From Naegleria gruberi (taxonomy: Eukaryota), in NCBI GenBank assembly GCA_000004985.1, contig GG738903.1: DNA of 64,000 nt; one strand, given 5' to 3'. A model generated the notes under the pieces. The model was not told the DNA's origin and did not search any database. It worked only from the letters and a program-made list of their open reading frames with translations. How positions within the stretch are numbered: the first letter of the stretch is position 1; each line of letters starts with the position of its first letter. Below are positions 2,903-48,045 of the stretch, in pieces. The translations under genes and the position numbers were made by a program.

Positions 2903-3063
2903 GGAAATCCAAATCAGATTTCAAATCTTCCTCCTCATCATATTCATCATCAGCATCAGCATTATTTGTTGTAGTTGTTAAATTTTCATTATCATTCATT
3001 GAATTAAATCTAGTATTACTTAATAAATTTGATTTTTTTAAATATTTCCAAATTTTTTCAATA

Positions 3064-4515: not shown

Positions 4516-5451
4516 TTTAAAAGCCTTATTATAATCCTTCTACTATGTAATTATGTGATTTATGTAACTATGTGATTGAATAATGGGTGATTGAATAATG
4601 ATGAGAGGATCTAACTCTCTCCTGTTTTTTTAAATCAATGATGGTGAGGTGTAAATTGTTCGATATTTGGAGTTTACGGAGAGGAACAATTACAATAAAA
4701 GCCACTTGATCATTTAAAGACCTGTGTACATATTCACAATGACATTTGATGACATGTTATTGTTTTATCGTATTTATACAATTAATTGTTCATTGTGTTG
4801 ATAACACTGCTGAGAATATTAAAATATAACGGATATCATTCAGTGGTCTATTTAAAAAACGACAATTATTTTCCATCAAGTACAATATATGTAATATTGA
4901 ATAATTTACAAGTATTGTATTTAAATGTGGTGTTTAATTGTAATATTAATTTTTAAATAATTAATATTATTTAATTTTAATTTATTGAACATTTACTCAT
5001 CATGAACATTAACTAGACATCTCAATAATAGTACAATAATAGAATATTCATTAATAATAATACTATTAGATCTATTATTAATATACTATTATATTATGTA
5101 TTGTTTTTTTTAACAAGAATGCAATTAAGTGGTTTAACATATTTCCATTATTATATAATTTAGAAATAAATATACAAATAATAAATTGTTGTTCTGAAAA
5201 TGCTGAGATTAATACATTCCGATATAATAATAATAGTAGATGATGATGTTATTGTGCAATGCAAATTATGAATCATGATGATGATAATATTTGTATGATT
5301 TGATGATAATGTAATAATAAATGCATTTTTTAATAAGTGAGAATAAAATCAACATGTCAACTGTTAAACCATCATCATTTAATAATATAATAAAAATTTA
5401 TTTAAATATATAATACACAATGGAGAATTAACAACACAACAACAATAATAT

Positions 5452-8400
5452 TTAATAATTTCCTCTAACTCTAATAATACTAATATTCTTTTCACTTTCA
5501 TCATTATTTTCATCACTTCCATCACTACCATTATTAGTATTATACATATTATTATTACTACCAGTAATATTATTATTATTATTATTTATATTATTATTAT
5601 TTAAAATAATTTGATTATTAAAATGATAATATTTTAAAATATTATTAATTAAATAATCATATGATAATAATCTAATTCTTTGACAAGTAGCAGGTGAATC
5701 AAGTATAAAAATATTAAAATTATTTAAATTATTTCTTCTAAAAGATTTAATAGCATTTCTAATAGCAAATAAAACACAACATGCTAATTGTAAAGGTGGT
5801 TCACCAATTGCTTTAGATCTATATATATTACTATTACATTCTGTATTTTCTTTTAATAATAAATGTATTTTAAATTTTAAAGAAATATCATTAAATGATG
5901 GTATTTTATAATTTGATGGTCCTATTGAAAATAACATTCCACTATTTATCCATTTATTTATAATTATATTATTATTATTTAAATTATTTAAATTATTTAA
6001 ATTATTATTATTATCAATTAAATTATTTAAATTATTTAAATTATTATCACCCCATATTAATTCTTCCATTAAATATAAACCAATACCNNNNNNNNNNNNN
6101 NNNNNNNNNNNNNNNNNNNNNNNNNNNNNNNNNNNNNNNNNNNNNNNNNNNNNNNNNNNNNNNNNNNNNNNNNNNNNNNNNNNNNNNNNNNNNNNNNNNN
6201 NNNNNNNNNNNNNNNNNNNNNNNNNNNNNNNNNNNNNNNNNNNNNNNNNNNNNNNNNNNNNNNNNNNNNNNNNNNNNNNNNNNNNNNNNNNNNNNNNNNN
6301 NNNNNNNNNNNNNNNNNNNNNNNNNNNNNNNNNNNNNNNNNNNNNNNNNNNNNNNNNNNNNNNNNNNNNNNNNNNNNNNNNNNNNNNNNNNNNNNNNNNN
6401 NNNNNNNNNNNNNNNNNNNNNNNNNNNNNNNNNNNNNNNNNNNNNNNNNNNNNNNNNNNNNNNNNNNNNNNNNNNNNNNNNNNNNNNNNNNNNNNNNNNN
6501 NNNNNNNNNNNNNNNNNNNNNNNNNNNNNNNNNNNNNNNNNNNNNNNNNNNNNNNNNNNNNNNNNNNNNNNNNNNNNNNNNNNNNNNNNNNNNNNNNNNN
6601 NNNNNNNNNNNNNNNNNNNNNNNNNNNNNNNNNNNNNNNNNNNNNNNNNNNNNNNNNNNNNNNNNNNNNNNNNNNNNNNNNNNNNNNNNNNNNNNNNNNN
6701 NNNNNNNNNNNNNNNNNNNNNNNNNNNNNNNNNNNNNNNNNNNNNNNNNNNNNNNNNNNNNNNNNNNNNNNNNNNNNNNNNNNNNNNNNNNNNNNNNNNN
6801 NNNNNNNNNNNNNNNNNNNNNNNNNNNNNNNNNNNNNNNNNNNNNNNNNNNNNNNNNNNNNNNNNNNNNNNNNNNNNNNNNNNNNNNNNNNNNNNNNNNN
6901 NNNNNNNNNNNNNNNNNNNNNNNNNNNNNNNNNNNNNNNNNNNNNNNNNNNNNNNNNNNNNNNNNNNNNNNNNNNNNNNNNNNNNNNNNNNNNNNNNNNN
7001 NNNNNNNNNNNNNNNNNNNNNTCTGAATGCTATCTAATACTAATCTAACTGTTTGTTGACTTTTTAATGCTCCAATTGCACATGCACATGCTATTAAAAT
7101 ATTAAATTAAAAATATAAATTAAATATTAAATTAATAAATATTAAATAAATAAAATTTAAAAAAAAACCTACCTAAAACAGAAGCTCTTGTTTCTTTACC
7201 ACCAAAACCACCACCTATTTTTTGTGGAGTTTTAACTTGTATTTGATTCATTGATAAATTTAAAGCTTTTGAAACTAATTGTTGAGTTGTTGAAATTGAT
7301 TGAGTTGATGAATAAATAGTCCATCCACTCTTTTCAATAAAATTATTAGATTCAGGTATTACTAAACATGATTGTGTTTCTAAATAAAAATGTTCTTGTC
7401 CACCAATATAACAATCACCTTCTATATATTCATATTCATTTTCTATTTTAGTATTTTTAATCATTTCTTTAAATTCAGAAAATGAAATATTTGAACTTTG
7501 TAAATGTCTATATTGATCATTAAAAAATGAATTACTATTAATAGCATCATCTATATTTAGTATAGGTTTACTATTTTCAAATGGTTGATATTTAATAATT
7601 ACTTTTTTAGATGCTTCTCTTGCTTGATTTAAAGTATTTGCTAAAATTAAACCAATTAATTGTCCACATGAAGTTGATTCACTACTTTTAAATACTTCTT
7701 CTTCATTTGGTATTACAATACCAATATTATTATTTGGTACATCTTTATAATTTACAAAATATTTAACACCTTCCATTTCAAGTGCTTTACTTTCATCAAT
7801 TTCAATAATTTTAGCATAAGGTTGTGTTGTAAATATAGGATAGGCTTGTAATTCATTTTCTAAATGTGGAATATCATCTAAATATTGTGATTTTCCTTCT
7901 ACTGATTTTTTACCATATATATCAACATGATTTTTACCAATAGTATTTAATTCTTTAACTAAATTTAAATCAATTATATTTGATTTTAATTTTAAATCTT
8001 GAATATATTGTCCAAATTCATATTTATCTATTTTAGGTAAGTAATGATATTCACTTTGAATACTTTCTTCTTCTTTTGTAATATTTAAACAATTTAATTG
8101 TTTTTTAACATGTGTAAAAAATTTAATTAAAAAACTTTGTGATAATGTCATTCTATATAAGGATTGACCACCTGGTGTATTTTCATTTAAATTTAATTTT
8201 TCATTTAATAATTTAATTGAATTTTCTAAAATTAAATTATAATTTTCAATAAAATTCTTTCCAATTAAATATTCATTTAAATAATTTAAATAAATTACCA
8301 TAAATGACATTCCACCAAATGAAATTGAACAATCTTCAATTATATTATTATTATTTAATTTAATTGTCATACATGAATTAACAATTGCAATATCATCTTC

Positions 8401-9760
8401 TTTTCTTTTAGATTGTTTAAATGCTTTACAATAAATATTATTATCAGTTACTATATTTGGAATTATTACATTCAATAATATTTCAGTAGGTAATATATTT
8501 AATTTTCTATATCCAATATATAAATCTCTAATTGAAATATTTCTAATTTCATTTGTTTTAATATTTAATAAATTTAATTTAGCATTTAAAGATTGCCAAA
8601 TTGGGACAAGATCTGAAATTGGTGAACCTGTCATTATATTACCACCAATAGATGCAACATTTCTAATTGGAGTAGATGCAAACCATTTACATTGATCTAA
8701 AATTGTTTTAATTTTTCTATTTTTAAATTCTAAATTACTTTCCATAAATGTATTTAAATATTCCATTAATTTTTGTATAGTAATACTTGAACCAATTAAT
8801 AATTCATTAGAATTTTCATTTAATTGTAAATTTAACATTTCATTAATATTTATTAATGATATAAAATGTGAATATTCTAAATTACGATGTTTAATTTCCA
8901 AACTAACTTCTGTATTTCCAATTATGTATTTAGGAATTATATTTTTAGAATTTAAATTTAATATTATATTTTTTAATTCATTTAAATTAATTGGTCTATA
9001 CCATTCAATATTATCATCTTTATATGATAAATATTTAAATTTATAATTTCTTAATTCAAATGGAAATAAATATTCTTTTTCATATTTAATTTCATTTATA
9101 TTATTATTAATATTATTATTAGTAATAGTATTATCATCATTGGATGGAGTTGGTTCAGTTGTTTTATTTTTAACTTTACAACAACCACCTTCTTTATTAC
9201 AATTACCACATCCATTACCATAAATAGAAGTATTATTATTAGTATCATTTATATTATCATTTAAATCATGATTATATTCATCAGATAAAGATATAGCCAT
9301 ATCTAAAATAGATCTATAACCAGTACATCTACATAAATTACCATCTAAAGATAATTCAATTTGTTTAATTGTAGGCTTTGAATAATTTCTTAATAAGGAA
9401 TATAAACTCATAATAATACCAGGTGTACAAAAACCACATTGTAAAGCATTAAATTAAACAACTTTACTTTTTAATAAAGTTAAAATTGAATCTTGTTTAA
9501 TACCTTCTATAGTAATAATAGAACATCCATCTAAATGTATTAATGGATATAAACAGGCATTAATAGAATAATTAATAATCTTATTTTGTAATGTATCATA
9601 TTTAGATAACATTACAATACAACTACCACATCCACCTTCTGAACAACCTATTTTAGTACCTGTTAATTTTAAATATTCTCTCAAATATTCTGCTAAATTT
9701 AATTTAATTAATAAATTATTTAATTTTAATTCAATACGTTCACCATTAACATAAAATAAT
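5452..9760 (-). CDS. xdh: Xanthine dehydrogenase/oxidase (molybdenum hydroxylase). The N-terminal 2Fe-2S region is 9454..9760, the FAD and Mo-cofactor core is 7132..9453, and the C-terminal segment is 5452..6069. The middle is interrupted by assembly gap 6088..7021.
   Basis: N-terminal 2Fe-2S motif 'VNGERIELK...LTGTKIGCSEGGCGSC'. Second 2Fe-2S and FAD region 'CGFCTPGIIMSLYSLLRN...GNLCRCTGYRSI'. C-terminal 'AIGEPPLQLACCVLFAIRNAI' matches the conserved XDH C-terminus. Asn-rich insertions are present. Confidence 0.8.
6088..7021. other. assembly gap (run of N)
   Basis: N characters in the sequence. Confidence 1.
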
Positions 9761-10362
9761 ATTTACTATTATTATTATTTGTATTATTATTTTCAAGTTG
9801 AACTTGATCATCATTAAAATTGAAAGTTAATGATGCTGATGATGATTTAATATCATTATTATTGATTATCATTCTCAAGTTGTTGATTTTTAAATGATGA
9901 TGGCGTTGAAGATTTGCGATTAATTGGAGAGAAAAAGTTACAGTAGTGTTGAGTTATTGTTTTTTTTCAACAGAGAACACGTGTGGTGGAGAGGCTCAAT
10001 ATTGTTGAATGGTTCATGGATTCTGAAATTGAGCGGAGCGGGTAGATCACAAACCATATTTGGCCGATCTATAGATATTTTTGCTCAACGTTTCCATTTC
10101 GGTAACACAAGGTTCATGGAATGAAAACACTTATTATCAAATTTATTATTAAAATCGTGGTTGAGAAGAATTGTAGTAAATCTTCCCTTAATAAATGCAG
10201 AGGTGAACCCATGTCTAAATTACCTGCTATTGGAGTTCAGGGATTAGACAAAAACTCGTAGTAGTTGTACATTATTGTAAAAGTATTTGAAACTGATTCG
10301 TACAACTGATCATGAACATGTATTGAACTTGTTGTTCCACATCAATTATTATAATAAAAAAA

Positions 10363-16439: not shown

Positions 16440-17180
16440 TGGGTTTGTGTTTTGTGATGCGATTTTATTAATGGGTGTGATGACCATCACAAATAACAGG
16501 CCGATAGGACGTATGTGTTGGAAGCTGTTAAACAACGTGGAAATGCGCTTGAATATGTAGACGAATCATTTAAATAAAGCCGATAGAGAAATTGTGTTGG
16601 AAGCTGTTAAACAAAATGGATGAGCACTTGAATATGTTGATTCATCATTTAAAAAAGATAGAGAATTTGTATTGGAAGCTGTAAAACATAATGGATGAGC
16701 ACTTTAATATGTTGATTCATCATTGAAAAAAGATAGAGAAATTGTATTGGAAGCTGTTAAACATAATGGATCAGCACTTAAATATGCTGATTCATTATTG
16801 AAAAGAGATAGAGAAATTGTATTGGAATCTGTTAAACATAATGGATCAGCACTTAAATATGTTGATTCTTCATTGAAAAAAGATAGAGAAATTGTATTGG
16901 AATCTGTTAAACAAAATGGATCAGCACTTCAATATGCTGATTTATTATTGAAAAAAGATAGAGAAATTGTATTGGAAGCTGTTAAACAAGATGGATTGGC
17001 ACTTGAATATGCTTATTTTCAAAATGACAGAGAAATTGTATTGGAATCTGTTAAACAAAATGGATCAGCACTTGTATATGCTGATTCATTATTTAAAAGA
17101 GATAGAGAAATTGTATTGGAAGCTGTTAAACAACATGAATTGGCACTTGAATATGCTGATTCATCTTTACAAAGAGATAT
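16440..17180 (+). repeat. Tandem array of about seven 102-bp (34-aa) DUF4116-like repeats. The 5'-most copies (16440..16720) carry in-frame TGA and TAA stops and a frameshift.
   Basis: Repeats read '...DREIVLE(A/S)VK(H/Q)NGSAL(K/Q/E)YADSLLKK'. Copies are near-identical at the nucleotide level. The upstream copies read 'ggatgagcac' where the intact copies read 'ggatcagcac'. Confidence 0.8.
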
Positions 17181-18981
17181 CATTTTTATATATTCACTTG
17201 TTAAATTGAACAAAGAAAATACAAGAAGCTTCTCACCCTCTATAACCAAAACCATTGAAGAAGCCAACATTAATCTTCAGAGAAAGCTGTCAAGCAATAT
17301 AATTGAACAGCAATACTCCAAAATATTTATGGATGAAAAGGATTTATATTATGCTATTGAATTAACAAGTCTCTTTAATCCAACACCAAAAGGTACAATA
17401 TTCAATTTCAATTCTATCTATACACCAATATTTGTTGAAAAGTTGATTATTTTCCAAATATTGAAACGAATGAACCATTCAGAATTATCCACTGAAACTC
17501 TTCTTTCAGCCAACTATTATTTATTTTGTTTCAGATTGGACAAATTTCTTGAAGATAATCCTTCTCAATCAACAAGAATGAAAGATTTGAAGAATATTGT
17601 GGAACAAGTTGCAACAAATTTTGAAACATTATTTTATACAAAACAGGAAATTAATGAAATTATGATTTTTTCCAACAAGTGGTTTGAAAATGAGCAAACA
17701 TTTGAGAATTACAAACAAATAGTGTGTAAATATAACGAGGTGAGAGGAGATTTATCAAAAGTATTCAAAGCTCTCAATTATTTCTATAATTATTTCAAAT
17801 ATAATTATGATTTCATTTCAGTATTAGGATATGGAGGTGAAGGTGTTGCATTTAAAGTATTTCATAAAAGTAGTAAATCATTAAGGGCATTAAAATTAAA
17901 ATATGACCCAGAGGAATCTGAAGAATCAACAAAAGAAACCATTAATTTATTGAAAAGAACAGATATTGAAGGAAAGATCAAATGTTTTGATTGTGAAATT
18001 ATTCAAAATCATTTATATTCAGTGATGGAACTTGGAGAGGAATCATTATCAAATTATATTTATAGAAATAATCAAGATGGAATTTATAGAAATGGATTCA
18101 TTAAGAAGGAAAAGTTGATTGAAATTCTTGAAATATTTATCAAAGTATTAAACTCAGTCAAATCAATTCATGATCACAATATTTTACACAGAGATTTAGA
18201 TCCTCAAAATATTGTCAAAGTTCAAGATTTATACAAAATAATTGATTTTGAAACATCAAGAGTTATCAAGACAGGTAATTCAATTACAATTGCTCGTGGA
18301 AAGTTTGCATACATGTCTCCTGAAGTTTCACATGATAATTATTCTGATGATTTATTGAAAAGTGGTAATGATGAAAAGCTTGCTCACAATGTTGGACAAA
18401 TTACCATTTCATGTGATATATTCTCTTTGGGATGTATTTTATTGAAATTATTGACAAATTGTCCATTACAATTATGTTCAACATTTGTTAATGATTCAGC
18501 CATCTCTAAATATAATGATAATTATCCATATTTTAGTGGGCATGGAAAATATTTCTATACAGTTGTAACAAATACTGAGGGAGAAATGAAATTACATTAT
18601 GCAATTGAAAAACTAATCAATGAAACCATTAATCCAGATTTAGGAGTGAACAGCATATTAATTAGAAGCATTATTAGCATGATTCAAAGAGAGTCATCAA
18701 AAAGATTAGATTGTTATTCTCACAAGTTAACAATTGAGAATATTTTGAAATTTTTGAAAGATGAAATCAAAGATATCACTTTGAATATTGAAAAACAAGT
18801 TGGCGAATTGAAGAAAATCTCACCATTAAGAAGTTACTCTCAACTTGCAGAGGAAGTTGATAAACTTGCAGAGGAAAACACCAACCTATATAAACTTTTG
18901 GATGAAAACACCAGGGAAAATAGCAACCTATTAGAAAGAATTAAAATGTTGGAAGAAGAAATAAGAAAACTCAAACAATAA
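16723..18981 (+). CDS. Protein kinase with an N-terminal array of DUF4116-like 34-aa repeats and a C-terminal coiled-coil. The true start is uncertain: no in-frame ATG for ~200 codons, and the ORF-track start is a TTG.
   Basis: Kinase motifs 'GYGGEGVAFKV', 'LHRDLDPQNIV', 'DFETSRV' and 'YMSPEV'. Terminal heptad-like 'LAEEVDKLAEENTNLYKLLDENTRENSNLLERIKMLEEEIRKLKQ'. Confidence 0.7.
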   Translation: MKKDREIVLEAVKHNGSALKYADSLLKRDREIVLESVKHNGSALKYVDSSLKKDREIVLESVKQNGSALQYADLLLKKDREIVLEAVKQDGLALEYAYFQNDREIVLESVKQNGSALVYADSLFKRDREIVLEAVKQHELALEYADSSLQRDIIFIYSLVKLNKENTRSFSPSITKTIEEANINLQRKLSSNIIEQQYSKIFMDEKDLYYAIELTSLFNPTPKGTIFNFNSIYTPIFVEKLIIFQILKRMNHSELSTETLLSANYYLFCFRLDKFLEDNPSQSTRMKDLKNIVEQVATNFETLFYTKQEINEIMIFSNKWFENEQTFENYKQIVCKYNEVRGDLSKVFKALNYFYNYFKYNYDFISVLGYGGEGVAFKVFHKSSKSLRALKLKYDPEESEESTKETINLLKRTDIEGKIKCFDCEIIQNHLYSVMELGEESLSNYIYRNNQDGIYRNGFIKKEKLIEILEIFIKVLNSVKSIHDHNILHRDLDPQNIVKVQDLYKIIDFETSRVIKTGNSITIARGKFAYMSPEVSHDNYSDDLLKSGNDEKLAHNVGQITISCDIFSLGCILLKLLTNCPLQLCSTFVNDSAISKYNDNYPYFSGHGKYFYTVVTNTEGEMKLHYAIEKLINETINPDLGVNSILIRSIISMIQRESSKRLDCYSHKLTIENILKFLKDEIKDITLNIEKQVGELKKISPLRSYSQLAEEVDKLAEENTNLYKLLDENTRENSNLLERIKMLEEEIRKLKQ

Positions 18982-21452: not shown

Positions 21453-24400
21453 TTAATAATAGTTGATTAAGCATACAATGATAACAACAAATAATACCAT
21501 CATAATCATTGAATGTTTTAACATTGAGGAAGAATTGAGTGTAATAGTAGTTGATGTCATTAAATCAGAAGGTGATGGTTGAATTGGTGAAGGTTGTTGT
21601 TGTTGGTTATTAAAAAATCTTAGAATATCAAATGAATGATAACTTTCAACAACTGAAGAAGAAGCCAATTGATTTCTACTTGTTCTTCTACTGGAAATTC
21701 CATCATTTGTTAGAATAGTTTCTGTATGAATGAAACAATCATTAACACTTCCAAATGTAGAATTGGAAAACATTTGTGAAGTTAATTTAAAACTAAATGC
21801 AATTTGATTATTAACAAATGGGAATTTGATAATTGTTGATTCATATTGAGATATTTCACTTTGATTTCTAACAAGTTGAATCCAACTAGTCATTAATGAA
21901 GGATTGTAAACAGTACATCCTAGTTGACCATTTGTTAAATCAAATGTTGGCATTGATCGACCTGAACTAACACAACACAAATAAGAATTCTTAATAGAAA
22001 TTCTAACTGTACTTTGTAATGAAGCTGCCTTTCCTTCAGTATCTACAACCTTTACAACAACATGTGGCTTTTCAGATAATTGAAATAAATTCTTTGATTC
22101 CTTGAAATTATCAGAAAATAAACTCAATTGAGTTAAAAGTTTAAATTCTGAAGGAGGTGGATTAATTGGCATGTAATACGAAAGTGAAATAATTAATGGT
22201 ACTTGATATAAATCACCCTCTGGAGATTTAACATAAACTTGGAATGTGAAATCACCTGAATAGTAATTTAAATATTCTCTTGCTATAATTGTCATGTAAT
22301 ATTCACCATTTGATTTGAATTGTAATGAAATATCAAATGACACATTGTGATTTGGTTCTGACTTGCTAAATGAAACACTTTCAATGAAGGCTTTTTGTGA
22401 GAATAAAGTACCTGAAACTTTCAATTTGTTATTCGAAACTGACAGTAATTCTCTTCTGAATGAAATTTGACTAATTGAACTATTTGAATTAACAACACCC
22501 ATATCAATATATTGATGAGATGAAAGTAATAACTTGATTTGATGATCAACTTTGTAATTTGTAATTTGACAATAATTATTATTAGAAATTAAACTAATGT
22601 AAATTGGAACTGTCAAGGTAAGAACAACTCCAGAAGAATCTAATTGTTGAGTGACTCTTGAATCAGAAATCAAATCAGAAATAGAAGTAGAAATAGAATA
22701 TTGAGTTTCACATGTCAATTGACTTGTAGAATTTGTGACAAGATCAGTAACATTTCTTTCACAAGTAGAAATTTCAGAGAATGATAATCTTGTCATGTTT
22801 GTAGATCTTGAAAGAATATTAGAAACTGAAATGGTATACATAATCTTTGAAGATCCTAAATTTGTAACTGAAACCTTTGGCGGAGAATTAATAAACGAAA
22901 GACAATTCTCCGTCTGAATTTCACACATTGAACCACTTGAATATGGAGGACATGTGAGACAAGATGTGGAATTGATACAACTTTCACATGTAGATGGACA
23001 AGTATTACTGCAATCTGAACCATATAATCCATTAAAACATTTAGAACATTGATTTGGAGATGAACATGCAATGCAATTCTCATTACAAACTGGAATTTGA
23101 CATGTTGGACCTGTCCATCCAGATCTACATGTTGAACATGATACCTCTGATGAACATGATTTGCAATTAGATGGGCATATAATATTACAATAACTTCCAT
23201 AATATCCTTCGTTACATTCTAAACAATCACCTGTACTTGTTGAACAGGTTGCACAATTGGAAACTTTACAAACTTTCTCATTACAATATTGACCTTTCAA
23301 ACCATCTAAACACTTATTACATGTTTCACTTGATGAACATACTTCACAATTAACTAAACATTTGAGTCTACATAATTTAGAAGTATCATAAAATCCACTC
23401 TTACATGATTGACAATTAGATGCAGATGGAAGACAATTAGAAACTGAACTAATCTCACAATTAGTACCATTATATCCATTTGGACATGAACAATTATTAG
23501 GTGAGAGACATGAACCAATACCAGAACAAACACTTGCAACATCAGCTCTCTTTCCACCACAAATTGGAACTTCACAATTAATTCCTGCATAACCTGTTTT
23601 ACAATAACACATATCAAGCTCTTCACAAATTCCGTTTCCACTACATACATTAGGATCTGAATCAAATAATCCATTACACATGGTTGGTGAATAAATCATA
23701 TTTCCAATAACTTGCTTTCCAACACCACCTCCCCATAAAGAACCTGAAGTGGATGGATTTGCTGCTGGATATGGAAATTTATAGAAAGGTCCTACAATGT
23801 AATTATTACCATTATATGCTGTGAACATGAGAGAGTTATATTCTATAAAAGTTATTCTAGTGATTCTCTCAGTTGTTCCAATGAATGATGTAGATAAGAG
23901 TGTTGGATAGGAAACTCTTGGTAGTAATGAACTCCAGGAACCTGTGTAAAATATTTTGCCACTCTCCATTAGATACATCACAACATTTTGTGAAAAAGAA
24001 ATGGACAGGAGAATTTCACTTCCAAAAGTAGTAATGTCTAATTCTAGTGGTGAATACTGACAAAGTCCAGTATTTGTACCGTAGTAATTATCAGAAATTG
24101 GACCCCAAGCAAATAATTTTCTTGATTCTCTACTGTAAGCGAAACATAAATTTTGTAAAGAATAGCAAGAAAGGTATGAAATTTTGTGTGGGATAGCCAA
24201 TTTTGTAAAGTTTGTTTTGTAAACTCCAAAAAATCCACTTGGATAACAACCAGCAACAGATAATTCACCAAAAGATCTAACATTTCCTTCTTTAGTCAAA
24301 AAAAAGGAATAGAAATAATTTGTTTGAACATCAATAAATGTCTCATTAATTCCAGTATTGTAAACCATTGTTGGAGAATTAGGGAATGAAGGATAACTTT

Positions 24401-26279
24401 GGGCTGGAGTAAATGGAGTGACTAGTAAAATACCTGGAACAGATGTTGTTGCCATGAATCTAGCTGAGTAACTAGATAGACTTGTAAAAGGTGCAAATGT
24501 AGCATTTTTGAATAGTAATGTACTAACTGCAGATGTTGTTGAAGTTGGTTGTGTGTAGCTGAATATAACATCTCTTCTATTTCCAATACTGTAGCCATTT
24601 GATTCAATATATCTAATGCGATATGGGAAGATTGCATAAGGTGCATTGAAAGTTGGTAAAAATAAAGTTTCAAAATAATTTGGACCAGTTGAGCAAGTTT
24701 GCCCAGTAAAACCAGCATCACATTTTGTGCAAGTCTTATCATCTGAACAAGTCAAACAATTAGGAATGCATGTAAATGAACAAGTAGCACCAAATGTTCT
24801 TGGTAAACATGATGAACACAAATATGGTGTTGTACATTTAAGGCAACTTTCAGGACAAATAACTGAGGAACAATTAACACCTCCATAACCAGAGTTACAA
24901 ACACAAACACCGTCAATACATTGACCATTCGCACAATTGGTACATTTAGGTGCACATGTTGGTGGTGGAGAGGATGTTATAGAATTCTTACATGTCAAAC
25001 AACTTGTTGCACTCTTACATGTTAAACAATTAGGATTACAATAGAATTGACACAATGGACCATAGAATCCATTTACACAACTTGAGCAATTCATATTTGA
25101 ATAATCACATGCAGAACATGTGAATGGACATGTGAATGGAGGACTTTCAATAGTGAGTTGTTTTGGGAATGTTAAAACTGGTTGACCAGAAACTATTCCT
25201 TGTAGTTCATAAACACCAGGTGGTAAACTTGTAATATCAATTTGTTCACCTTTACATGGTAATTGAGCTTGTTGATTGTAGCCACTCTTATAGAAATTGA
25301 GAATTAAACTTGAGTAACGGTTACATAAAGCAATTTCAAAAGTGTTGAAGTAAATTCTTGAAGATTGTTGATAAATGATTGAATTAGGATAAACAGATAA
25401 GGAGATTAAATTATTAAACAATACTCTATTTCTAACTTGTAATTGATAATTACCCATGCTATGTCTACTAAAATATTGATAGTAATCTGTTTGTATTGGA
25501 AACCAATCTCCAAAATGATCGAAAAATGGAATAATTTCAGAAACAATATCCACTTCAAAACAATTAAATAGGTAGCATGGATATGCATTCACAATACGTG
25601 TATGTTTCACTTTTTTAGAAGCAAAATTAGCAAAGTTATCCATACCAGCAGCAGGTGAACCGAAAGTAATCAATTGAGCTCTATCCATTGGAATTGACAA
25701 TTCTTGTCCAATAATTGTAGCAGCAACTTGAGCTAAAGCACCACCTTGTGAATGCCCAGTCCAAATTATTCTATATCCAGAATAACCATTCACAAAATTC
25801 TTCAATATTTGCTTGTATTCTAAAATTTCAAAAAGAAAACCTGCATGCAGCCAAATAGTTGTTGTTGGTGTTATGGCGTATGGCACTGGAACAGCTTCAA
25901 AGTTTTGTATCCAATCTAAATAACCATCAGTTCCTCTAAAGGAAAAGACAATCTTCTTCTCTGAAGTAGAAACATAAATATTGAACACGGAAACAGACTC
26001 ATGATATCTGTAGACAAGTGTGTATTCTGGAACATAAGTAGAAGAAGTTGACAAATCATTATAAGCATCATTGGATAATACAGCAGCTGCGTAAACATCT
26101 CTATTGAAATATCCAGTATAATAGGGCTCATAGAAGGAACGTTCTGGATGTCCTCTCTCCATCATACGACGAGCAATGACACTCTCATTATATTCACTTG
26201 CCACAACTGTGTTTTGAAAACAAAATTGGACAACAAGTGACACTATTAAAGTGACAAGTAATAGTTGTGTTTTTTTCAT
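21453..26279 (-). CDS. Secreted or membrane-anchored class-3 lipase fused to about 25 tenascin/laminin-type EGF repeats and a C-terminal TM anchor.
   Basis: Signal peptide 'MKKTQLLLVTLIVSLVVQFCF'. Lipase_3 nucleophile motif 'GHSQGGALAQVAA'. Many 'C.C..G(Y/F).G..C' EGF units. Terminal 'MIMMVLFVVIIVCLI'. The start was re-set to the ATG at 26277..26279. Confidence 0.75.
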   Translation of the reverse strand: MKKTQLLLVTLIVSLVVQFCFQNTVVASEYNESVIARRMMERGHPERSFYEPYYTGYFNRDVYAAAVLSNDAYNDLSTSSTYVPEYTLVYRYHESVSVFNIYVSTSEKKIVFSFRGTDGYLDWIQNFEAVPVPYAITPTTTIWLHAGFLFEILEYKQILKNFVNGYSGYRIIWTGHSQGGALAQVAATIIGQELSIPMDRAQLITFGSPAAGMDNFANFASKKVKHTRIVNAYPCYLFNCFEVDIVSEIIPFFDHFGDWFPIQTDYYQYFSRHSMGNYQLQVRNRVLFNNLISLSVYPNSIIYQQSSRIYFNTFEIALCNRYSSLILNFYKSGYNQQAQLPCKGEQIDITSLPPGVYELQGIVSGQPVLTFPKQLTIESPPFTCPFTCSACDYSNMNCSSCVNGFYGPLCQFYCNPNCLTCKSATSCLTCKNSITSSPPPTCAPKCTNCANGQCIDGVCVCNSGYGGVNCSSVICPESCLKCTTPYLCSSCLPRTFGATCSFTCIPNCLTCSDDKTCTKCDAGFTGQTCSTGPNYFETLFLPTFNAPYAIFPYRIRYIESNGYSIGNRRDVIFSYTQPTSTTSAVSTLLFKNATFAPFTSLSSYSARFMATTSVPGILLVTPFTPAQSYPSFPNSPTMVYNTGINETFIDVQTNYFYSFFLTKEGNVRSFGELSVAGCYPSGFFGVYKTNFTKLAIPHKISYLSCYSLQNLCFAYSRESRKLFAWGPISDNYYGTNTGLCQYSPLELDITTFGSEILLSISFSQNVVMYLMESGKIFYTGSWSSLLPRVSYPTLLSTSFIGTTERITRITFIEYNSLMFTAYNGNNYIVGPFYKFPYPAANPSTSGSLWGGGVGKQVIGNMIYSPTMCNGLFDSDPNVCSGNGICEELDMCYCKTGYAGINCEVPICGGKRADVASVCSGIGSCLSPNNCSCPNGYNGTNCEISSVSNCLPSASNCQSCKSGFYDTSKLCRLKCLVNCEVCSSSETCNKCLDGLKGQYCNEKVCKVSNCATCSTSTGDCLECNEGYYGSYCNIICPSNCKSCSSEVSCSTCRSGWTGPTCQIPVCNENCIACSSPNQCSKCFNGLYGSDCSNTCPSTCESCINSTSCLTCPPYSSGSMCEIQTENCLSFINSPPKVSVTNLGSSKIMYTISVSNILSRSTNMTRLSFSEISTCERNVTDLVTNSTSQLTCETQYSISTSISDLISDSRVTQQLDSSGVVLTLTVPIYISLISNNNYCQITNYKVDHQIKLLLSSHQYIDMGVVNSNSSISQISFRRELLSVSNNKLKVSGTLFSQKAFIESVSFSKSEPNHNVSFDISLQFKSNGEYYMTIIAREYLNYYSGDFTFQVYVKSPEGDLYQVPLIISLSYYMPINPPPSEFKLLTQLSLFSDNFKESKNLFQLSEKPHVVVKVVDTEGKAASLQSTVRISIKNSYLCCVSSGRSMPTFDLTNGQLGCTVYNPSLMTSWIQLVRNQSEISQYESTIIKFPFVNNQIAFSFKLTSQMFSNSTFGSVNDCFIHTETILTNDGISSRRTSRNQLASSSVVESYHSFDILRFFNNQQQQPSPIQPSPSDLMTSTTITLNSSSMLKHSMIMMVLFVVIIVCLINYY

Positions 26280-26691
26280 CTTGATGAATTTTGAATACCA
26301 ATGTATTGAATTGCTGTGATTGGTTGTTTGCATTGTGCGTGGGTGGGAATGCTCACGTTGAGACTTCCCAACCAAGGTTTTGACAGGTTGGACATGTTGA
26401 ACAGAAATGCAAGGTAATGCATTAAATGAGAATCTCATTATCCAACTTTGAGCTTTAAATACCAACAACTAGTTTTTTAATTAGGACATAACTATCTTAC
26501 TGATTTAAAACTACGAACGATAAGTTTGTATTTTTTTGTTGTTGAGCAGTAGGAATCTTTATTGATATTCCTAATGGATGTTAGATAATAGCAAATAATA
26601 TTTTCATGGTTTTTACTAGACTTTGCATAGTATTTAAAAATATGAAAACTAATGCTTGTGGTTTAACTATGAAAGAAAAAGAAACAAAAGC

Positions 26692-26772
26692 TGCAGAAGG
26701 TGGGATTTGAACCCACGAAGCTTGCGCAGTAGAACTTGAGTCTACCCCCTTTGACCACTCGGGAACCCCTGC
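26692..26772 (-). tRNA. tRNA-Leu (anticodon CAA), type II with a long variable arm.
   Basis: Hand-folded cloverleaf with 7-bp acceptor, 3-bp D-stem, 12-nt variable arm and 5-bp T-stem. Anticodon loop is CT-CAA-GT; T-loop contains GGTTCAAATCC. Confidence 0.8.
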
Positions 26773-26928: not shown

Positions 26929-29900
26929 ATGAGCGACAATGATGTTAACCAACAAGATGCTGGCGAAGAAAATGTGAATCTCCTTCGGAGGATTGTGAAT
27001 CGATTGTTTTTCAGTATGATTTTTCCACTTGCTAGAAAATACTACTCCAAAGGATCAATTGGTTTGGATGAATTGATAAAGTTACCATCATCCTTTGCTT
27101 TTCGAATAACTTCGGAACCATTTGAAAGATTTTTCTTTTCACTTAAAGGTGATTATTTACGACAATCAGTCATGTTTCTATTGAAGAGATGCATTTTCAA
27201 AATGATATTTTGCATAATTGGAAGGATAATAGTAATTGCATGTGATTTAGCTCGTCTTTATTGTTTAAATCAAATATTAATATTTAGTGAAAAATTTTAA
27301 ATTGACAGTTGAGGCTGTTTTATATGTAATCGGAATGAGTTTATTAATGTTTATATTCAAATCAATTAGATGTTTTACTGATGATCATGTAACTTTTATT
27401 GCACAACAATTGGGAGAATCAACAAGTAATTCTTTATTGAATGCAATTTATAGGAAAGTGTTGAGAATGAGTAATAGTTCTAAACATGAATATTCTACTG
27501 GTTCTGTTATGAATATTGCAACAACAGATGCATCTAGATTTCCATGGTTTTATTATTATATTGAAACTGTCATTGCATCAATGATGACATTTGCTGCTTG
27601 TTTGTGGTTTTCATGTAATTTATTGGGAATTTCAGCATTGTTTGGATTTTCAATTATTTTAATACTTGTTCTTCCACTCTCAGCTGCATGTATGATTTGG
27701 GAACAGAAAATTGAGGAAATTATTGAGGCAAATCAGGATGAAAGAAGTCAAATTATTTCACAAATGGTCTATGCAATGAGATTTGTTAAATTTTATACAA
27801 TGGAAAAATTATTCAAGAGGAAAATTATGAATATCAGGGAGGTGGAAATGAAAAATATCAAGAAGGGTTATATTTCAGATTCTGGAATGAGTGTATTGTG
27901 GAATGCATTTGCTCCAATGATTTCATTTGTTAGTTTTTTACATTTTTGTTATGTGAAAGGTGAAACTTTGAGTGTGAGCACATCATTCTCATTTCTAAGT
28001 GCACTCGATATGATTAGATATGAGGTTATCTATGTACCTGATTCATTGCTGAATATTTCGAGAGCTTGTACAAGCTTTAAGAGAATTATCAAATTACTCA
28101 GCTCTGAAGAAATTTCAGAATCGTCCACCGATTCTAATAATAAGGAAATGGAAAATCAGAAGATTCTGGAGAAGGATTTGGTTGCAGAGTATGCCAATGC
28201 TTCATTTACATGGGATTCTCTAAAGTGCGAATCATCACCAACAATAACTTTGAAGGAAATTAATCTTAAAATTAAGAAGGGTGAATTTGTTTGTATTATT
28301 GGAAGAGTTGGTCAATCGAAATCATCTTTATTGTCCTCCTTGTTGGGAGAAATGAATTTCATTGAATCTCAAGATTCATTCTTTGAAAAAGATTCTAATC
28401 TGAAATATTCCTATGTTGCTCAAGATTCTTGGATTAGAAACCAAACTATTCGTGAGAATATTCTATTTGGAGAAGAATTTGATAAGGAAAGATATCAACA
28501 AGTTCTCCATGCTTGTAATTTGGAACCTGATCTTCAACAAATATCAAAAGAAATTGGAGACATGACAATGATTGGAGAGAGTGGAATTAATTTATCAGGA
28601 GGTCAAAAGCTGAGAATTTCATTGGCCAGATGTTTCTACTCAAATGCAGATGTATTCTTATTGGATGATCCATTGTCAGCAGTTGATGTTCATACAGCTG
28701 ATCATATTATGAAATATGGAATTTATGGATTCTTGAAGGGAAAGACAACTCTAATGGTCACTAATCAAATTCACTTTATTGATAAGGCTGATAGAATTTT
28801 AGTGATGGATCAAGGTAGAATTGTTCAACAAGGAACTTTTACAGAGCTCTATCAAGAAGATTTGAATTTTAAAAATCTAATTGATGAATTTTCATCCAAC
28901 AATAAGAATAATCAACAGGAAGAAAGAGATTTATTCGATGAAGAGGAAGAGAATATCGAGAATCAAACTTCAATTGAATTGATTTCACATGAATCCCTTG
29001 AAGAATATTCCAAAATAGAAGAAGAACAACGTAAGAATCCATCCACACTTGATAGTATGAAGAGATTATTCAAATTTGCAGTTGGTAATAGCAAATTCAT
29101 GTTTGCTCTCATTTGTTTCTGTGCCATTATTCAACAATTGGTAACAGTTGGTCATCAATATGTATTGAGCTTGTGGTCAAATGATAGTGAATATCAAAGC
29201 TTTACACTGTTGACTTATTTACTTGCCTATTTGGGTACTTCTTTGATTTACATTGTGGCAGATATTAGTTCTGGATTTCTTTGCCTCATTCACTTTTTGA
29301 ATACTGCCAAACTATTACATGAGAAATTAATGACTAGTATCATTCATTCATGTATTGCATTCTTTGATTCAACACCTGTTGGAAGAATAATTGCCAGATT
29401 CACACGTGATACCAATTCGATAGATACTGATCTTAATAAGAACTTGGCACAATTGATTCCATACTTTTTCTTCTGGATTGGTGGTATTATTACTGTAATG
29501 ATCATGTCACCCTATTCAATTATTCCAGTAGTCATTCTGTCACCTGTTATATTTTTCGTGCAGAGTTATTATAGAGTTTCACTGAGAGAAATTGAACTAT
29601 TGGCAGGGGTTTATTCTTCACCAGTTAATTCACAACTATCTGAAACTATTCATGGTCTTCAAACTATTCGTGCCTTTGGAAAACAAAATTTACTTGTTGA
29701 AAGTTTTATTGAAAAGGCAGAAACACAAGCAAGAGTTTCGTATAATTCTCATTGTTTGAGCGCTTACTTTAATATGAGAAATGAGGTTGTATTTGCTCTG
29801 TGTGTATCACTCATCATTATTTCTAGTGTGTTGAGTTTTAGTGGATCATTGGTTGGTGTGATTATTCTTCAAGCAACATTGAGTTTTGATTCACTCTATT

Positions 29901-30853
29901 ATATTTCATACCTTTTTGTAATGATTGAAAAGTATATTGTTTCAGTTGAGAGAATTGAACAATATTCTGAATTAGAAAGTGAAAAATATGAACCTAATGT
30001 TCAAGTTGACATGAAAGAATTTGGAAATGGAGGTCAAATTGAAATGAAAAATGTTTGTATGAGATATAAGAAACATACATTCGAAACTGAACCAGCTGAA
30101 CAAAACAAATTAGTCCTCAAAGGAATTAATTTAAAAATCAATGCAAAAGAAAGAGTGAGCATTTGTGGAAGAACAGGCTCAGGAAAATCCAGTTTAATTC
30201 AATCACTAATGAGAATGCAAGAAATTGAACAAGAATCCACCATTCTCATTGATGGTATTGATATTAGAAATGTACCACTTGAAACACTGAGAAGTACCAT
30301 GTGTATCATTCCACAACAACCAACTCTATTTAAAGGAACTCTTCGTGAGAATCTTGACAGTTATTCACAATATACAGATAGAGAATTATGGGATGCTTTA
30401 GAAAAAGTTGGAATGAAAGATAAATTGGATCAATTACAATCATTAGATGATGAAGATGAAGAAAAATCAGAAAAAGAAGTAATAACCATCAAGCCAACTG
30501 GTCTAGAAACTGAAATATCAGAAAATGGTGAAAACATTTCAGCAGGTACGAGACAATTATTGTGTCTTGCTAGAGCTCTGATAAGAAAGAGCAAAATTTT
30601 GATATTGGATGAGGCTACTGCACTGTGTGATTTGGAAACTGATAAACTCATTCAGAAAACATTGAGAGAAGAGTTCTCATCAAATTGCACAGTGATTTGT
30701 GTAGCTCACAGATTGGAAACAATATTAGATTATGATAAGATTGTTGTAATAGATGATGGATTAGTGAGAGAAATTGGAAGTCCATCTGAATTATTGGCAG
30801 ATTCCTCCTCCCTCTTCTATCAAATGGTTGAAAAACACAACAAGAGAAAATAA
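26929..30853 (+). CDS. ABC transporter, ABCC/MRP-like. Exon 1 is ~26929..27262. A short intron lies at roughly 27263..27285 (exact borders unresolved). The remainder runs to 30853.
   Basis: NBD1 has Walker A 'GRVGQSKSSLLSSLLGE', signature 'LSGGQKLRISLARC' and Walker B 'FLLDDPLSAVD'. NBD2 has 'GRTGSGKSSLIQSL', 'ISAGTRQLLCLARAL' and 'LILDEATALCD'. Two membrane domains are present. The ORF-track start at 27287 is a GTG inside TMD1. Confidence 0.8.
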
Positions 30854-41049: not shown

Positions 41050-43413
41050 TTACAATATGATATCTATTGCACTCTCTTCTTTTAGTGAAATGTATTTTGG
41101 AATCAGTTTTTGCATTTCTTTTTCTAGTTCTGTTGTGAATTCTCTATTGTTTTTCAGCTCGTTTGAAGCAAATTTGAGAGTATATGGTATTTCCAATACC
41201 GCAGCAGTTACAATCTGCTTATCGTTTCTCAATTCCTCTGAGGCAAACTTGAGAGCATTTCCATTTTTAGAGATGGCTGCTAGTACTACTTGCCTATCAT
41301 TTTTCAGTTCCTCTGAGACATACTCGAGGTTTAATCCATTTTGTTGTACTTTTTGTAATGCTAATTCTCTATTATCTATTATTGATAGTGGTTGAGAGGA
41401 AAATACAAATGGTAAAATATAAGTAAATGGTTTTTTGAAAATGAGAATGTCGCCATCTTGTTTCAGTTCTTCAGATGCAAATCTAAAGGAAGAGCCATTG
41501 TTTTGAACTGCCTTCATAACAACCTCTTTGTCATTTCTCAATCTATCCGATGCATATTCAAGAACAATTCCATCCAGTTGAACTGCAGCTAGAACAATAT
41601 CCCTATCGTCCCTTAGTTCTTCTGTGCAGTGTTGTAAAGCTATTGGATTATTTTTAACTGCTTCCATAGCAATAATCTTGTTTCCTTTAAAAGATGTTCC
41701 ACAAAATTTAAGAGAATTTCCATTTTTTCTAATGGCCAAGCTAACTATTTCTAAATCATTCCTTAAAGCCTTACATGCATACCCAAGATTGTTACCGTCT
41801 CTTTTAATAGCTTCTGTAACAATATGACGATCTTTCTTCAATTCCTCAGATGCATAACTAAATGATCCACCATCGGTATTCATTGCCTCTATTATTACAT
41901 CCTTATCATTTCTCAAATTTTCACATGAATAATATAGAGCATTACCATAATTCTTCACTGCTTTCAAGACCATTTCCTTATCATTGTTGAAATGAGGAAT
42001 GCAACATAGTGCTTGTCCTTTTAATTCCATTATTTTTAACATGAATTCTCTATTATTCTTCAATTCTTCAGAGGTCAGTGATAGATTTTTAATTGCATCC
42101 TGAGGTTCACTCATCAATGCAACTTGATAAATGATTTGCTGATCATTCAAAAGTTTAGTAGAGGCATACATAATAGCGTTTGAATTTTGAGTAATAGCCT
42201 CCATTACAATTTCAAAATCATTTCTAAAAGAGAGTGCATATTCAAGAGACATGCCATTTTGTTTTACACACCCTAAAACAAGTTCTTTCTCTATCAAAAA
42301 GTCCTCTGGTGATACAAATTGAAGATTGAGGCCATTCTTTTCACATACATACGAAACAACACTCTTACTATTTTTAAATGGGTGTTTTAAATTTTGAAAA
42401 CAATCAACCAAGCTAGTAACTTTGCCATTCAAATTATCAAACATCACCTGAAATATATTTTCAATAGAATATCTATTGTCTTCGTGAATACATGTCATTC
42501 CTTTACATAAGTCCTTAATTACAATCCATGAAGAAGGATCATTCTCAAATTCGCTAATAGTGGTAGTAGTATTAGTAATAATATTTTGGAATAATGTTTC
42601 GATATCATTCCACAATTCTTCTTGTTGATATTTTAATTGTAAGTGAAATCGATCTAGAAATAGAAATGATAGAATAGTAATACCCAGACTAAAAATATCA
42701 CATTTGCAGGAACATTTTCCATTAAGGATTTCTGGAGCAATAAACCCAATTGTACCAGCAAAACCTGTAGCAGAAGAGTAACAGGAGCTAGTACAATCAT
42801 CAACCAATTGCTCATTATTTTCCTCATTTAACAATAACATATCATCTAAATTATTTTCTGCCATTGTGGCACATCCTAAATCTCCCAACACTATCATTCC
42901 CTCCTCACTCATAAAAATATTTTCCGGTTTAACATCTCTGTGAATGATATGATTCAGTGATAGGGATTGCAAAGCTCCACAACACTGCACAATGATTTGT
43001 AATACCATTAAAATTGAAACTCTTTCCAAGTTTTTTCTCACATCACGCAAATTATTTCCTCTAAATTTAGATATAATAACATATTCTCGTAAGGTTATAG
43101 AGGCTTCATCATCATCATTATAATTATTAAAAGTTTTCATCGATAAAACATTGGCATGATTTGTGTGTTTATACTTTTGCAAATACTCGCTTCTGGTTTC
43201 TCCAGTCTCAAGTAAACCTGAATCATCATGAATAATTTTAAAAACCATCAATGATTGATCGCTCATCTTTCTACACTTGTAAACCCATGTTGTTGGATTT
43301 CGGTAAATTTCTGCTATGGGAAAATAGTATTCACCTTGAAATTCAAAACTTGTTCCATTGTTGTTATTATGGAAAAGAAGCGAAGAAATGGTGGACTGAA
43401 GAGATTTGGTCAT
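41050..43413 (-). CDS. Protein kinase (N-terminal) followed by about 12 DUF4116-like repeats. The domain order is inverted relative to the 16723 gene.
   Basis: Kinase motifs 'HRDVKPENIF', 'LGDLGCA' and 'GFIAPEIL'. Repeats such as 'VVLAAISKNGNALKFASEELRNDKQIV'. Confidence 0.7.
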   Translation of the reverse strand: MTKSLQSTISSLLFHNNNNGTSFEFQGEYYFPIAEIYRNPTTWVYKCRKMSDQSLMVFKIIHDDSGLLETGETRSEYLQKYKHTNHANVLSMKTFNNYNDDDEASITLREYVIISKFRGNNLRDVRKNLERVSILMVLQIIVQCCGALQSLSLNHIIHRDVKPENIFMSEEGMIVLGDLGCATMAENNLDDMLLLNEENNEQLVDDCTSSCYSSATGFAGTIGFIAPEILNGKCSCKCDIFSLGITILSFLFLDRFHLQLKYQQEELWNDIETLFQNIITNTTTTISEFENDPSSWIVIKDLCKGMTCIHEDNRYSIENIFQVMFDNLNGKVTSLVDCFQNLKHPFKNSKSVVSYVCEKNGLNLQFVSPEDFLIEKELVLGCVKQNGMSLEYALSFRNDFEIVMEAITQNSNAIMYASTKLLNDQQIIYQVALMSEPQDAIKNLSLTSEELKNNREFMLKIMELKGQALCCIPHFNNDKEMVLKAVKNYGNALYYSCENLRNDKDVIIEAMNTDGGSFSYASEELKKDRHIVTEAIKRDGNNLGYACKALRNDLEIVSLAIRKNGNSLKFCGTSFKGNKIIAMEAVKNNPIALQHCTEELRDDRDIVLAAVQLDGIVLEYASDRLRNDKEVVMKAVQNNGSSFRFASEELKQDGDILIFKKPFTYILPFVFSSQPLSIIDNRELALQKVQQNGLNLEYVSEELKNDRQVVLAAISKNGNALKFASEELRNDKQIVTAAVLEIPYTLKFASNELKNNREFTTELEKEMQKLIPKYISLKEESAIDIIL

Positions 43414-47974: not shown

Positions 47975-48045
47975 TAGGAAGACAGGGAATCGAACCCTGA
48001 TCTTAGGAACCACAATCCCATGTTCTACCACTGAACTATCTCCCT
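47975..48045 (-). tRNA. tRNA-His (anticodon GUG).
   Basis: Hand-folded cloverleaf: acceptor AGGGAGA/TCTTCCT, D-arm GTTC-AGTGGTA-GAAC, anticodon arm TGGGA-TTGTGGT-TCCTA, T-arm CAGGG-TTCGATT-CCCTG, discriminator A. G-1 is not encoded, as is normal for eukaryotic tRNA-His. Confidence 0.8.

Follow-up and report, generated by a model that had tools for sequence, protein, structure and literature searches.

What is known of class-3 lipases concerns chiefly small, secreted enzymes and cytosolic enzymes bound to membranes. The fungal representatives, such as Rhizomucor miehei lipase (PDB 1tgl), Thermomyces lipase and feruloyl esterase A, are free, single-domain proteins of approximately 260-300 amino acids (aa), and the sn-1 diacylglycerol lipases DAGL alpha and DAGL beta are multi-pass membrane proteins that carry a membrane-tethered class-3 domain with its catalytic part in the cytosol. 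Here we describe a gene of Naegleria gruberi, located on the minus strand at positions 21453..26279 of a 64,000-nucleotide (nt) stretch of contig GG738903.1 (assembly GCA_000004985.1; this whole stretch is hereafter the window), the 1608-aa product of which bears a class-3 domain at the head of a mosaic of several modules that ends in an anchor signal. The protein is probably a serine lipase or esterase displayed at the cell surface on a disulfide-rich ectodomain; in contrast to the DAGLs, its catalytic domain would then be extracellular or lumenal and located distally on a long ectodomain.

According to the list of open reading frames (ORFs) and their translation, the frame is open without interruption from 21453 to 26468 on the minus strand, on which all features of the gene given below are located. 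The Met codon at 26279 yields the 1608-aa product and the stop codon occupies positions 21453-21455, so that the complete, intron-free coding sequence consists of 1608 codons plus the stop. The product was found by exact-sequence look-up to be identical to N. gruberi EFC38977.1 (XP_002671721.1; UniProt D2VVX4), which is named "hypothetical protein NAEGRDRAFT_81427" at NCBI and "EGF-like domain-containing protein" in UniProt (EGF, epidermal growth factor). Seven further ORFs of the window match proteins of N. gruberi NEG-M exactly, these being encoded on a 304-kb scaffold. The possibility that the ORF represents an unannotated gene was rejected, as the annotated coding sequence has exactly the coordinates 21453-26279. 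An ORF of 1608 codons in DNA of ~32% G+C is far beyond chance expectation, and the gene is real, present in the databases and uncharacterised. The cluster that holds the protein at 90% identity is represented by an 819-aa partial paralogue devoid of the lipase domain, the probable reason why the full-length protein had been overlooked.

The lipase domain and its family

The class-3 lipase domain (an alpha/beta hydrolase by family) spans approximately aa 28-290 (25410..26198) and was delineated by its matches to Pfam and to profiles of PDB entries. Within it, aa 111-231 match the Pfam family Lipase_3 (PF01764) with 66.7 bits (cut-off 22; E=2.6e-18), which bears out the first-pass annotation, where a lipase_3 catalytic domain with a GHSQGG nucleophile elbow had been recognized from the sequence; homologues of the protein score 64.8 and 78.6 bits. 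The nearest solved structures are secreted fungal class-3 lipases and esterases. Searching the PDB, we retrieved the R. miehei lipase at E=7e-11 with the single sequence and at 3.7e-19 with the family profile, and the latter matched the Aspergillus feruloyl esterase A at 2.6e-18.

Homologues were sought with phmmer, using aa 28-380 as the query against 1.84 billion representative sequences. The search gave 2662 lipase hits, the best 150 of which were inspected; among these, a C-x4-C insert (described below) together with a large Cys-rich body was found only in P0012 (Willaertia magna, 1515 aa), P0057 (1667 aa, from assembly GCA_037189345.1) and the fragment P0013. The full-length Willaertia protein P0162 (KAL9641892.1) is collinear with the N. 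gruberi protein from end to end at 34-35% identity, and so is P0057 at 27-28%. A further member, L004, is encoded on a metagenome contig by a single 1644-aa ORF (24% identity; tblastn over aa 44-1600, E=5e-118). Word-index searches with the full protein, with the lipase region and with a four-sequence alignment returned EGF-rich proteins (tenascins, P0001 and P0002) or one small lipase, and none of the family members. Two W. magna proteins, KAL9641892.1 and KAL9651925.1 (ABK040_000830 and ABK040_000269), are collinear orthologues of the N. gruberi protein over its full length (34-35% identity): in both, the elbow GHSQGG, the triad, every Cys position, the RCC1-like domain and the C-terminal region are preserved, and both are likewise uncharacterised. 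The Willaertia gene differs in being 48 nt longer than its coding sequence, which it does not give by direct translation, suggesting a short intron; its genomic neighbours are also different. The family was proposed to be lineage-specific, and the narrow distribution found here (Naegleria, Willaertia, P0057, P0013 and L004) agrees with this: judging from the sequences retrieved, the full architecture appears confined to heterolobosean-like lineages. The sources of the two sequences L004 and L002, which encode the family members of the TM (transmembrane) type described below, both have a G+C content of ~42%.

A second, partial copy is present in N. gruberi itself on another contig of 15 kb (EFC35926.1; P0179) and has 89% identity over aa 424-1231. 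Over aa 868-1222 the two copies hardly differ, but the RCC1-like domain has clearly diverged, a pattern that suggests recent duplication or gene conversion.

The residues expected of an active class-3 enzyme can be located in most members of the family. The nucleophile elbow GHSQGG (aa 175-180; 25740..25757) is aligned with GHSLGG of the R. miehei lipase, placing Ser177, the predicted nucleophile, on Ser144 of the fungal enzyme; Gly175, His176, Ser177 and Gly179 are invariant in both family alignments (A1 and A5). The segment FRGT is aligned with the oxyanion motif FRGS, and TDGYLDWIQNF with the lid of the fungal lipase, SSSIRNWIADL, including its Trp. The predicted catalytic acid, Asp244 (25548..25550), is found in the motif DIVSEIIP and is invariant in all five members; the motif matches DIVPHLP around Asp203 of the R. 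miehei lipase, a correspondence read from the sequence beyond the region aligned by hidden Markov models (HMMs). It is followed by DHFGDWFPI, in which His255 corresponds to the H-x-G strand motif, a conserved but non-catalytic element of fungal lipases. The predicted catalytic base, His273 (25461..25463), occurs in the motif RHSMGNY and is kept in N. gruberi, Willaertia, P0057 and P0013, that is, in four of the five members, and is gone in L004; its correspondence to His257 of the R. miehei lipase was established by motif inspection.

Directly before the catalytic Asp, the alignments revealed a family-specific insert, YPCYLFNCFEV (aa 233-243; 25551..25583), with Cys235 and Cys240 as an invariant pair. 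The sequence AYPCYLFNCFEV stands where the R. miehei lipase has two residues, and among the inspected hits a C-x4-C insert in this position was found only in the family members and in P0126, a protein of 319 aa. Altogether, Gly175, His176, Ser177, Asp244, His255, His273, Cys235 and Cys240 are invariant in the N. gruberi protein, both Willaertia proteins and P0057, and the fragment P0013 agrees; the same four sources also have FRGT and the complete triad. With the fungal class-3 lipases the domain therefore shares PF01764, the GHSxG elbow, FRG[ST], the Trp-containing lid-like segment, D-[IV]-V-x-x-x-P and the H-x-G strand motif; it differs from them in heading a 1608-aa mosaic with an anchor signal, in its C-x4-C insert, which is longer by 10 residues, and in the distance from Asp to His (29 against ~54 aa). 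The HMM match was found and, as far as alignment can tell, the Ser/Asp/His triad, absence of which would have spoken against the proposed lipase, is present and conserved. On this basis the head looks like a serine lipase or esterase of class 3 (fungal type) that is competent for catalysis, with Ser177, Asp244 and His273 as its predicted triad.

A predicted mosaic ectodomain with a C-terminal anchor signal

The protein begins with a predicted signal peptide (aa 1-27, MKKTQLLLVTLIVSLVVQFCFQNTVVA, followed by SE; 26199..26279), recognized from a hydrophobic window at aa 3-27 and with its cleavage site placed by inspection according to the -3/-1 rule. Between the lipase domain and the C-terminal anchor, the first-pass annotation had proposed a stalk of about 25 EGF repeats. 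We count 13 repeats in two separate blocks, of which only three are canonical EGF units of the tenascin type, and a lipase on a plain EGF stalk was accordingly rejected as a description of the protein: the lipase domain is followed by a linker, five Cys-rich repeats, an RCC1-like domain, eight further Cys-rich repeats and a 465-aa region rich in predicted beta-strands. The linker (aa 291-380; 25140..25409) is poor in Cys and weakly conserved (16-19% identity to homologues at non-Cys positions), and has no Pfam match.

The two blocks contain 76 Cys residues, 30 within aa 384-529 and 46 within aa 868-1119, and all of them are conserved in homologues. From Cys spacing and pattern counts, the 13 repeats comprise 12 units with six Cys and one partial unit with four. 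Block 1 (aa 381-530; 24690..25139) consists of five six-Cys repeats, four of a CxxC type and one of the tenascin type, and block 2 (aa 867-1120; 22920..23681) of two tenascin-type EGF units (aa 868-902 and 907-941), the four-Cys partial unit and five CxxC-type repeats. The CxCx8C signature of tenascin-type EGF was found in only three of the 13 units (aa 449-470, 879-902 and 918-941), which fit the pattern C-x5-C-x5-C-x-C-x8-C, whereas the other ten are ~30 aa long and follow C-x3-C-x2-C-x5-C-x2-C-x8-C. When the ten CxxC-type repeats were compared with Pfam, no EGF family reached its threshold, the best matches being weak ones to the Giardia VSP family (E=3.9e-4) and to DSL. Even for the tenascin-type units the scores are close to the limits: EGF_2 is just above its cut-off at aa 877-902 (24.1 against 22.1 bits), and both EGF_Teneurin (23.5 against 24.3) and EGF_TEN (36 against 65 bits) fall below theirs. 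The likeness to the EGF arrays of tenascins and teneurins is thus that of three units with a CxCx8C-type pattern; the N. gruberi protein differs from those proteins by the CxxC-type repeats, ten out of 13, and by having no FN3, fibrinogen, YD-shell or toxin modules.

Inserted between the two blocks is a Cys-poor stretch of 336 aa (aa 531-866; 23682..24689), which Pfam and PDB profiles identify as an RCC1-like domain, probably a beta-propeller. With the N. gruberi sequence alone, the matches to PF25390 (E=1.7e-4) and PF13540 (E=1.9e-3) both remain below the cut-offs, but the homologous regions of P0057 and Willaertia match PF25390 at 8.4e-18, and the Willaertia region reaches 33.9 bits for RCC1_2 (PF13540; cut-off 22). 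A profile built from three sequences retrieved from the PDB the RCC1-like domain of RPGR (3.4e-13), HERC2 (1.6e-9), UVR8 and RCC1. Assignment as an RCC1-like domain is therefore justified at the family level by these sequence profiles; a single-sequence AlphaFold2 (AF2) model of the domain has a predicted local distance difference test score (pLDDT) of 32, too low to display a seven-bladed propeller fold. Known RCC1-like domains are mostly cytosolic or nuclear. The likeness of the N. gruberi copy to RCC1, RPGR, HERC2 and UVR8 is one at the profile level, and the copy differs from these domains in being placed between disulfide-rich blocks of a predicted ectodomain and in scoring below the Pfam thresholds on its own.

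The second Cys-rich block is followed by a conserved region of 465 aa (aa 1121-1585; 21525..22919), which is poor in Cys, rich in Ser and Thr, predicted to be all-beta and marked by the invariant motif N-x-[YF]-L-C-C ... M-P ... G-x-x-G-C-T. No sequence match to this region was found in Pfam or the PDB, and no relative was found in the JGI metagenome contigs with the patterns used. With columns aligning Cys to Cys excluded, the last two-thirds of this region and the lipase domain are the parts best conserved relative to the N. gruberi protein. An AF2 model based on a three-sequence alignment consists entirely of strands and has a mean pLDDT of 48.8, rising to 67-79 at model residues 150-250 (approximately aa 1270-1370 of the protein); the top Foldseek matches of the model are weak ones to the three-Ig-domain IgE-Fc (TM-scores 0.14-0.20). 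The model weakly suggests tandem beta-sandwich modules, possibly three.

Hydropathy analysis detected only two strongly hydrophobic stretches in the whole protein, the N-terminal signal-like segment and aa 1590-1608. The latter belongs to a C-terminal anchor signal (aa 1586-1608; 21456..21524), which by hydropathy and inspection is probably a signal for attachment of glycosylphosphatidylinositol (GPI) or, failing that, a TM segment without a tail. GPI-attachment signals are characterized by small residues around the omega site, a spacer of few residues and a hydrophobic terminus, and the N. gruberi C-terminus displays, in this order, NSSS (aa 1582-1585), the spacer MLKHS and the 18-aa hydrophobic end MIMMVLFVVIIVCLINYY. 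The protein terminates with TLNSSSMLKHSMIMMVLFVVIIVCLINYY (...CLINYY), in which NYY alone follows the hydrophobic core, with neither a basic stop-transfer segment nor a tail; the Willaertia orthologue has a likewise tail-less hydrophobic end, NSGNRNIVTAMTDLLSLLFISLLLLLLQ. By inspection, both C-termini look like GPI-attachment signals. P0057 and L004, on the other hand, possess a TM helix, followed by RRR or KKR and a tail of ~60 aa, and these two members of the TM type have in common the tail motif HLR[DE]FVG[IV]LP (L004, 9-4943, and L002, 860-5863, both on the plus strand). The type I TM segment and tail of P0057 and L004 fix the topology with the ectodomain outside. The suggestion that the protein is TM-anchored can thus be followed in part: the C-terminal hydrophobic segment is there, but a true TM helix with a tail is found only in P0057 and L004, and the N. 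gruberi protein does not have the combination of TM helix, basic stop-transfer segment and cytoplasmic tail that defines a type I TM receptor. Under GPI and TM anchoring alike, the lipase is at the membrane-distal end, as had been proposed, being the N-terminal head of a predicted secretory protein that ends in a hydrophobic anchor signal. The N-terminal signal, the 76 Cys residues arranged in regular repeats, the 17 N-x-S/T sequons and the C-terminal position of the sole other hydrophobic segment all point to a secretory, extracellular character.

Proposed function and its alternatives

Taken together, these features are best accommodated by a serine lipase or esterase that is anchored at the cell surface by GPI or by a tail-less TM segment and displayed on a disulfide-rich ectodomain, a reading to which we assign a probability of roughly 0.6. 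The protein would be a glycoprotein of the secretory pathway, exposed on the outer face of the plasma membrane and, after uptake, on the lumenal face of phagosomes or food cups, with a GPI lipid or tail-less TM segment as its anchor in N. gruberi. Its head, equipped with Ser177, Asp244 and His273, with FRGT as oxyanion motif and with a lid-like segment that contains a Trp, would be borne by a long, rigid, disulfide-rich and glycosylated ectodomain, with ~465 aa of beta-rich modules next to the membrane. Such a stalk could push the lipase past the glycocalyx, allowing it to hydrolyse ester lipids of touched or engulfed targets, whether prey bacteria or other cells. The RCC1-like domain may serve as a binding platform, and the propeller and the EGF modules may help in target binding or in organisation of the protein.

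Several observations weigh against this reading. The 29 aa separating Asp244 from His273 compare with 54 aa in the R. miehei lipase. Owing to the family-specific insert, the HMM alignments do not reach the catalytic Asp; they end at residue 200 of the R. miehei lipase, just before Asp203. The score of feruloyl esterase A is close to those of the triacylglycerol lipases, so that it does not decide between a lipase and another esterase. In L004, the equivalent of His273 has been lost through a short deletion and FRGT is replaced by FRGA, with all else kept. The GPI assignment was made by eye, and the view of the C-terminal region as beta-sandwiches depends on a model of low confidence. Finally, a literature search by gene, protein and UniProt identifiers, extended to one N. 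gruberi proteomics supplement, returned no mention of the protein and no expression data.

The loss seen in L004 is also the main evidence for a different view, namely that the protein is chiefly an adhesion or recognition molecule, in which the EGF-like, RCC1-like and beta-rich modules bind and the head is a lipase fold that binds a ligand or is only marginally catalytic. Having lost the catalytic His and the Thr of FRGT, L004 retains every other module of the ectodomain, indicating that catalysis is not indispensable to the family and that the ectodomain is of value beyond it. Furthermore, sub-regions of the C-terminal part are conserved as much as the lipase domain or more, EGF arrays and beta-propellers are modules typical of adhesion proteins, and the Willaertia orthologue is located among genes for Cadherin_3-domain proteins. 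Nevertheless, Ser, Asp, His and the elbow are kept in four of the five members at an overall lipase-domain identity of only 22-35%, which is the pattern of purifying selection expected for catalysis, and we regard a mainly adhesive role as unlikely, while taking it seriously.

Somewhat more doubtful is the proposal that the enzyme acts on non-lipid or polymer esters (feruloyl, cutin or cell-wall esters), or on the cyst wall or extracellular matrix of the amoeba itself. It draws on the near-equal profile matches of feruloyl esterase A and the R. miehei lipase (2.6e-18 against 3.7e-19), the alignment with the former reaching further towards the N-terminus. In contrast, the Trp-bearing lid-like segment aligns with the lid responsible for interfacial activation in the R. 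miehei lipase, and Pfam scans of the N. gruberi protein detected no carbohydrate-binding module.

The receptor kinase gene, the surrounding window and biological meaning

The lipase protein had been viewed in the first-pass annotation as one half of a pair, the other being an EGF-receptor kinase encoded ~28 kb away and sharing its EGF repeat type. The distance is correct: the kinase ORF (54006-60641, minus strand), which codes for ~19-22 tenascin-type EGF units, a TM segment and a protein-kinase domain, lies 27.7 kb from the lipase gene. As regards the repeats, two or three of the 13 in the lipase protein are of the kinase type and the others are not. Moreover, two tenascin-type units of the lipase protein reach 51-54% identity with the closest-matching units of the kinase, as compared with 40-57% with their positional orthologues in Willaertia and P0057, so that no special relationship to the kinase emerges from the comparison. 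The regions outside the EGF units, including the C-terminal region, show no similarity to those of the kinase ectodomain (hhalign probability 0.1). Between the two genes are ~12 unrelated ORFs, among them those for an ABCC transporter, an RGS protein, a DHHC palmitoyltransferase, Hsp70 and DUF4116 kinases, as well as two tRNA genes, and no EGF kinase was found within +/-10 kb of the Willaertia orthologue, where the neighbours code for Cadherin_3, PX and abhydrolase proteins. The histories of the repeats are also different. The kinase array (58740-60006, minus strand) is built from a 351-nt higher-order tandem repeat of three EGF units (2.4 copies, 80% identity), with additional periodicities of 117 and 234 nt, which indicates recent amplification as judged from the DNA; in the lipase gene, no repeats were found at the DNA level.

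Consequently, a TM-anchored lipase on a plain stalk of ~25 EGF repeats that works as a functional pair with the kinase is very improbable. The tenascin-type units present in both proteins, and the location of both genes on one scaffold and in the same orientation, are in its favour, but the number and type of the repeats, their identity to kinase units (no higher than that to orthologous units in other genera), the dissimilarity of the remaining regions, the intervening ORFs, the Willaertia neighbourhood and the unlike repeat histories speak against it, and no adjacency, conserved synteny or specifically shared modules were found. That the lipase gene itself is an artefact, with at least two separate genes joined by an accidental long ORF, is hardly credible, since only the unusual combination of domains suggests a fusion, and a single 1608-codon ORF in AT-rich DNA and the identical domain order in three other sources, each time within one ORF or gene, contradict it.

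The receptor gene has features of its own. An ORF directly upstream of the kinase ORF (60644-61612, minus strand; 3-nt gap) encodes a signal peptide, MARLITFVLFLILLHLSLVNS, and NHL repeats (PF01436, E=2.5e-24; teneurin NHL, 3.1e-11). Judging from this arrangement, the complete gene probably comprises a signal peptide, an NHL propeller, ~22 EGF units, a long ectodomain, a TM segment and the kinase domain, continuing across a short intron or frame change. In the catalytic loop (~54330-54350, minus strand; aa ~2072-2079), IHANIKHSN occurs in place of HRDLKxxN, the catalytic Asp being replaced by Asn; DFG (as SDFG) is there, and so is the VAIK-type Lys. From this sequence, the "receptor kinase" may be a pseudokinase. 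Upstream of its TM segment, aa ~1780-1825 (~55170-55300, minus strand) contain a GPS/GAIN-like motif, C..W...W....C.V.HLS.F, similar to one in the unrelated EGF protein P0002, for which no Pfam GPS or REJ match was obtained.

Elsewhere in the window, the space between the lipase gene and the divergently oriented ABCC-type ABC transporter gene (26929-30853, plus strand) holds a tRNA-Leu(CAA) gene (26692-26772, minus strand), which is 413 nt away from the start codon of the lipase gene on its upstream side. The transporter gene is represented by two overlapping ORFs (26929-27300 and 27287-30853), suggesting a short intron or a frameshift near 27290. A tRNA-His(GTG) gene (47975-48045, minus strand) adjoins the DHHC palmitoyltransferase gene. 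Two genes encode protein kinases fused to arrays of DUF4116 repeats (16723-18981, plus strand, and 41050-43413, minus strand), with 5 and 11 matched stretches, respectively. The extremely AT-rich stretch at ~2000-10000 (G+C content of 12-21%) has long ORFs on the two strands that overlap one another, as well as short tandem repeats made up of A and T only. Probably it is intergenic or repeat DNA of low complexity.

The catalytic domain and the repeat types of the lipase protein are of known kinds, and we found no description of the fixed order of modules from lipase_3 to anchor; papers on polymorphic toxins and surface-modifying enzymes mention Naegleria and not this lipase-mosaic architecture. 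What distinguishes the protein is a class-3 domain on top of an ectodomain of ~1600 aa, the order of modules being fixed across Naegleria, Willaertia and two further sources. Also worth attention are an RCC1-like domain in what is predicted to be an extracellular setting and a conserved 465-aa region belonging to no known family. The practical value of the finding is modest at present, and an orthologue in N. fowleri or activity at the surface would raise it. Should it prove active at the cell surface or inside the phagosome, the enzyme would be a concrete candidate for breaking membranes on contact by bacterivorous amoebae, which, among the relatives of N. fowleri, are also cytolytic. More tentatively, and with considerable doubt on our part, the proteins might constitute a heterolobosean family of surface effectors in which the lipase, projected on its stalk over tens of nanometres, attacks the membranes of prey or host on contact. 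Were this so, the family would be a eukaryotic analogue of the surface-displayed lipase toxins of bacteria and a candidate player in the contact-dependent killing exerted by Naegleria.

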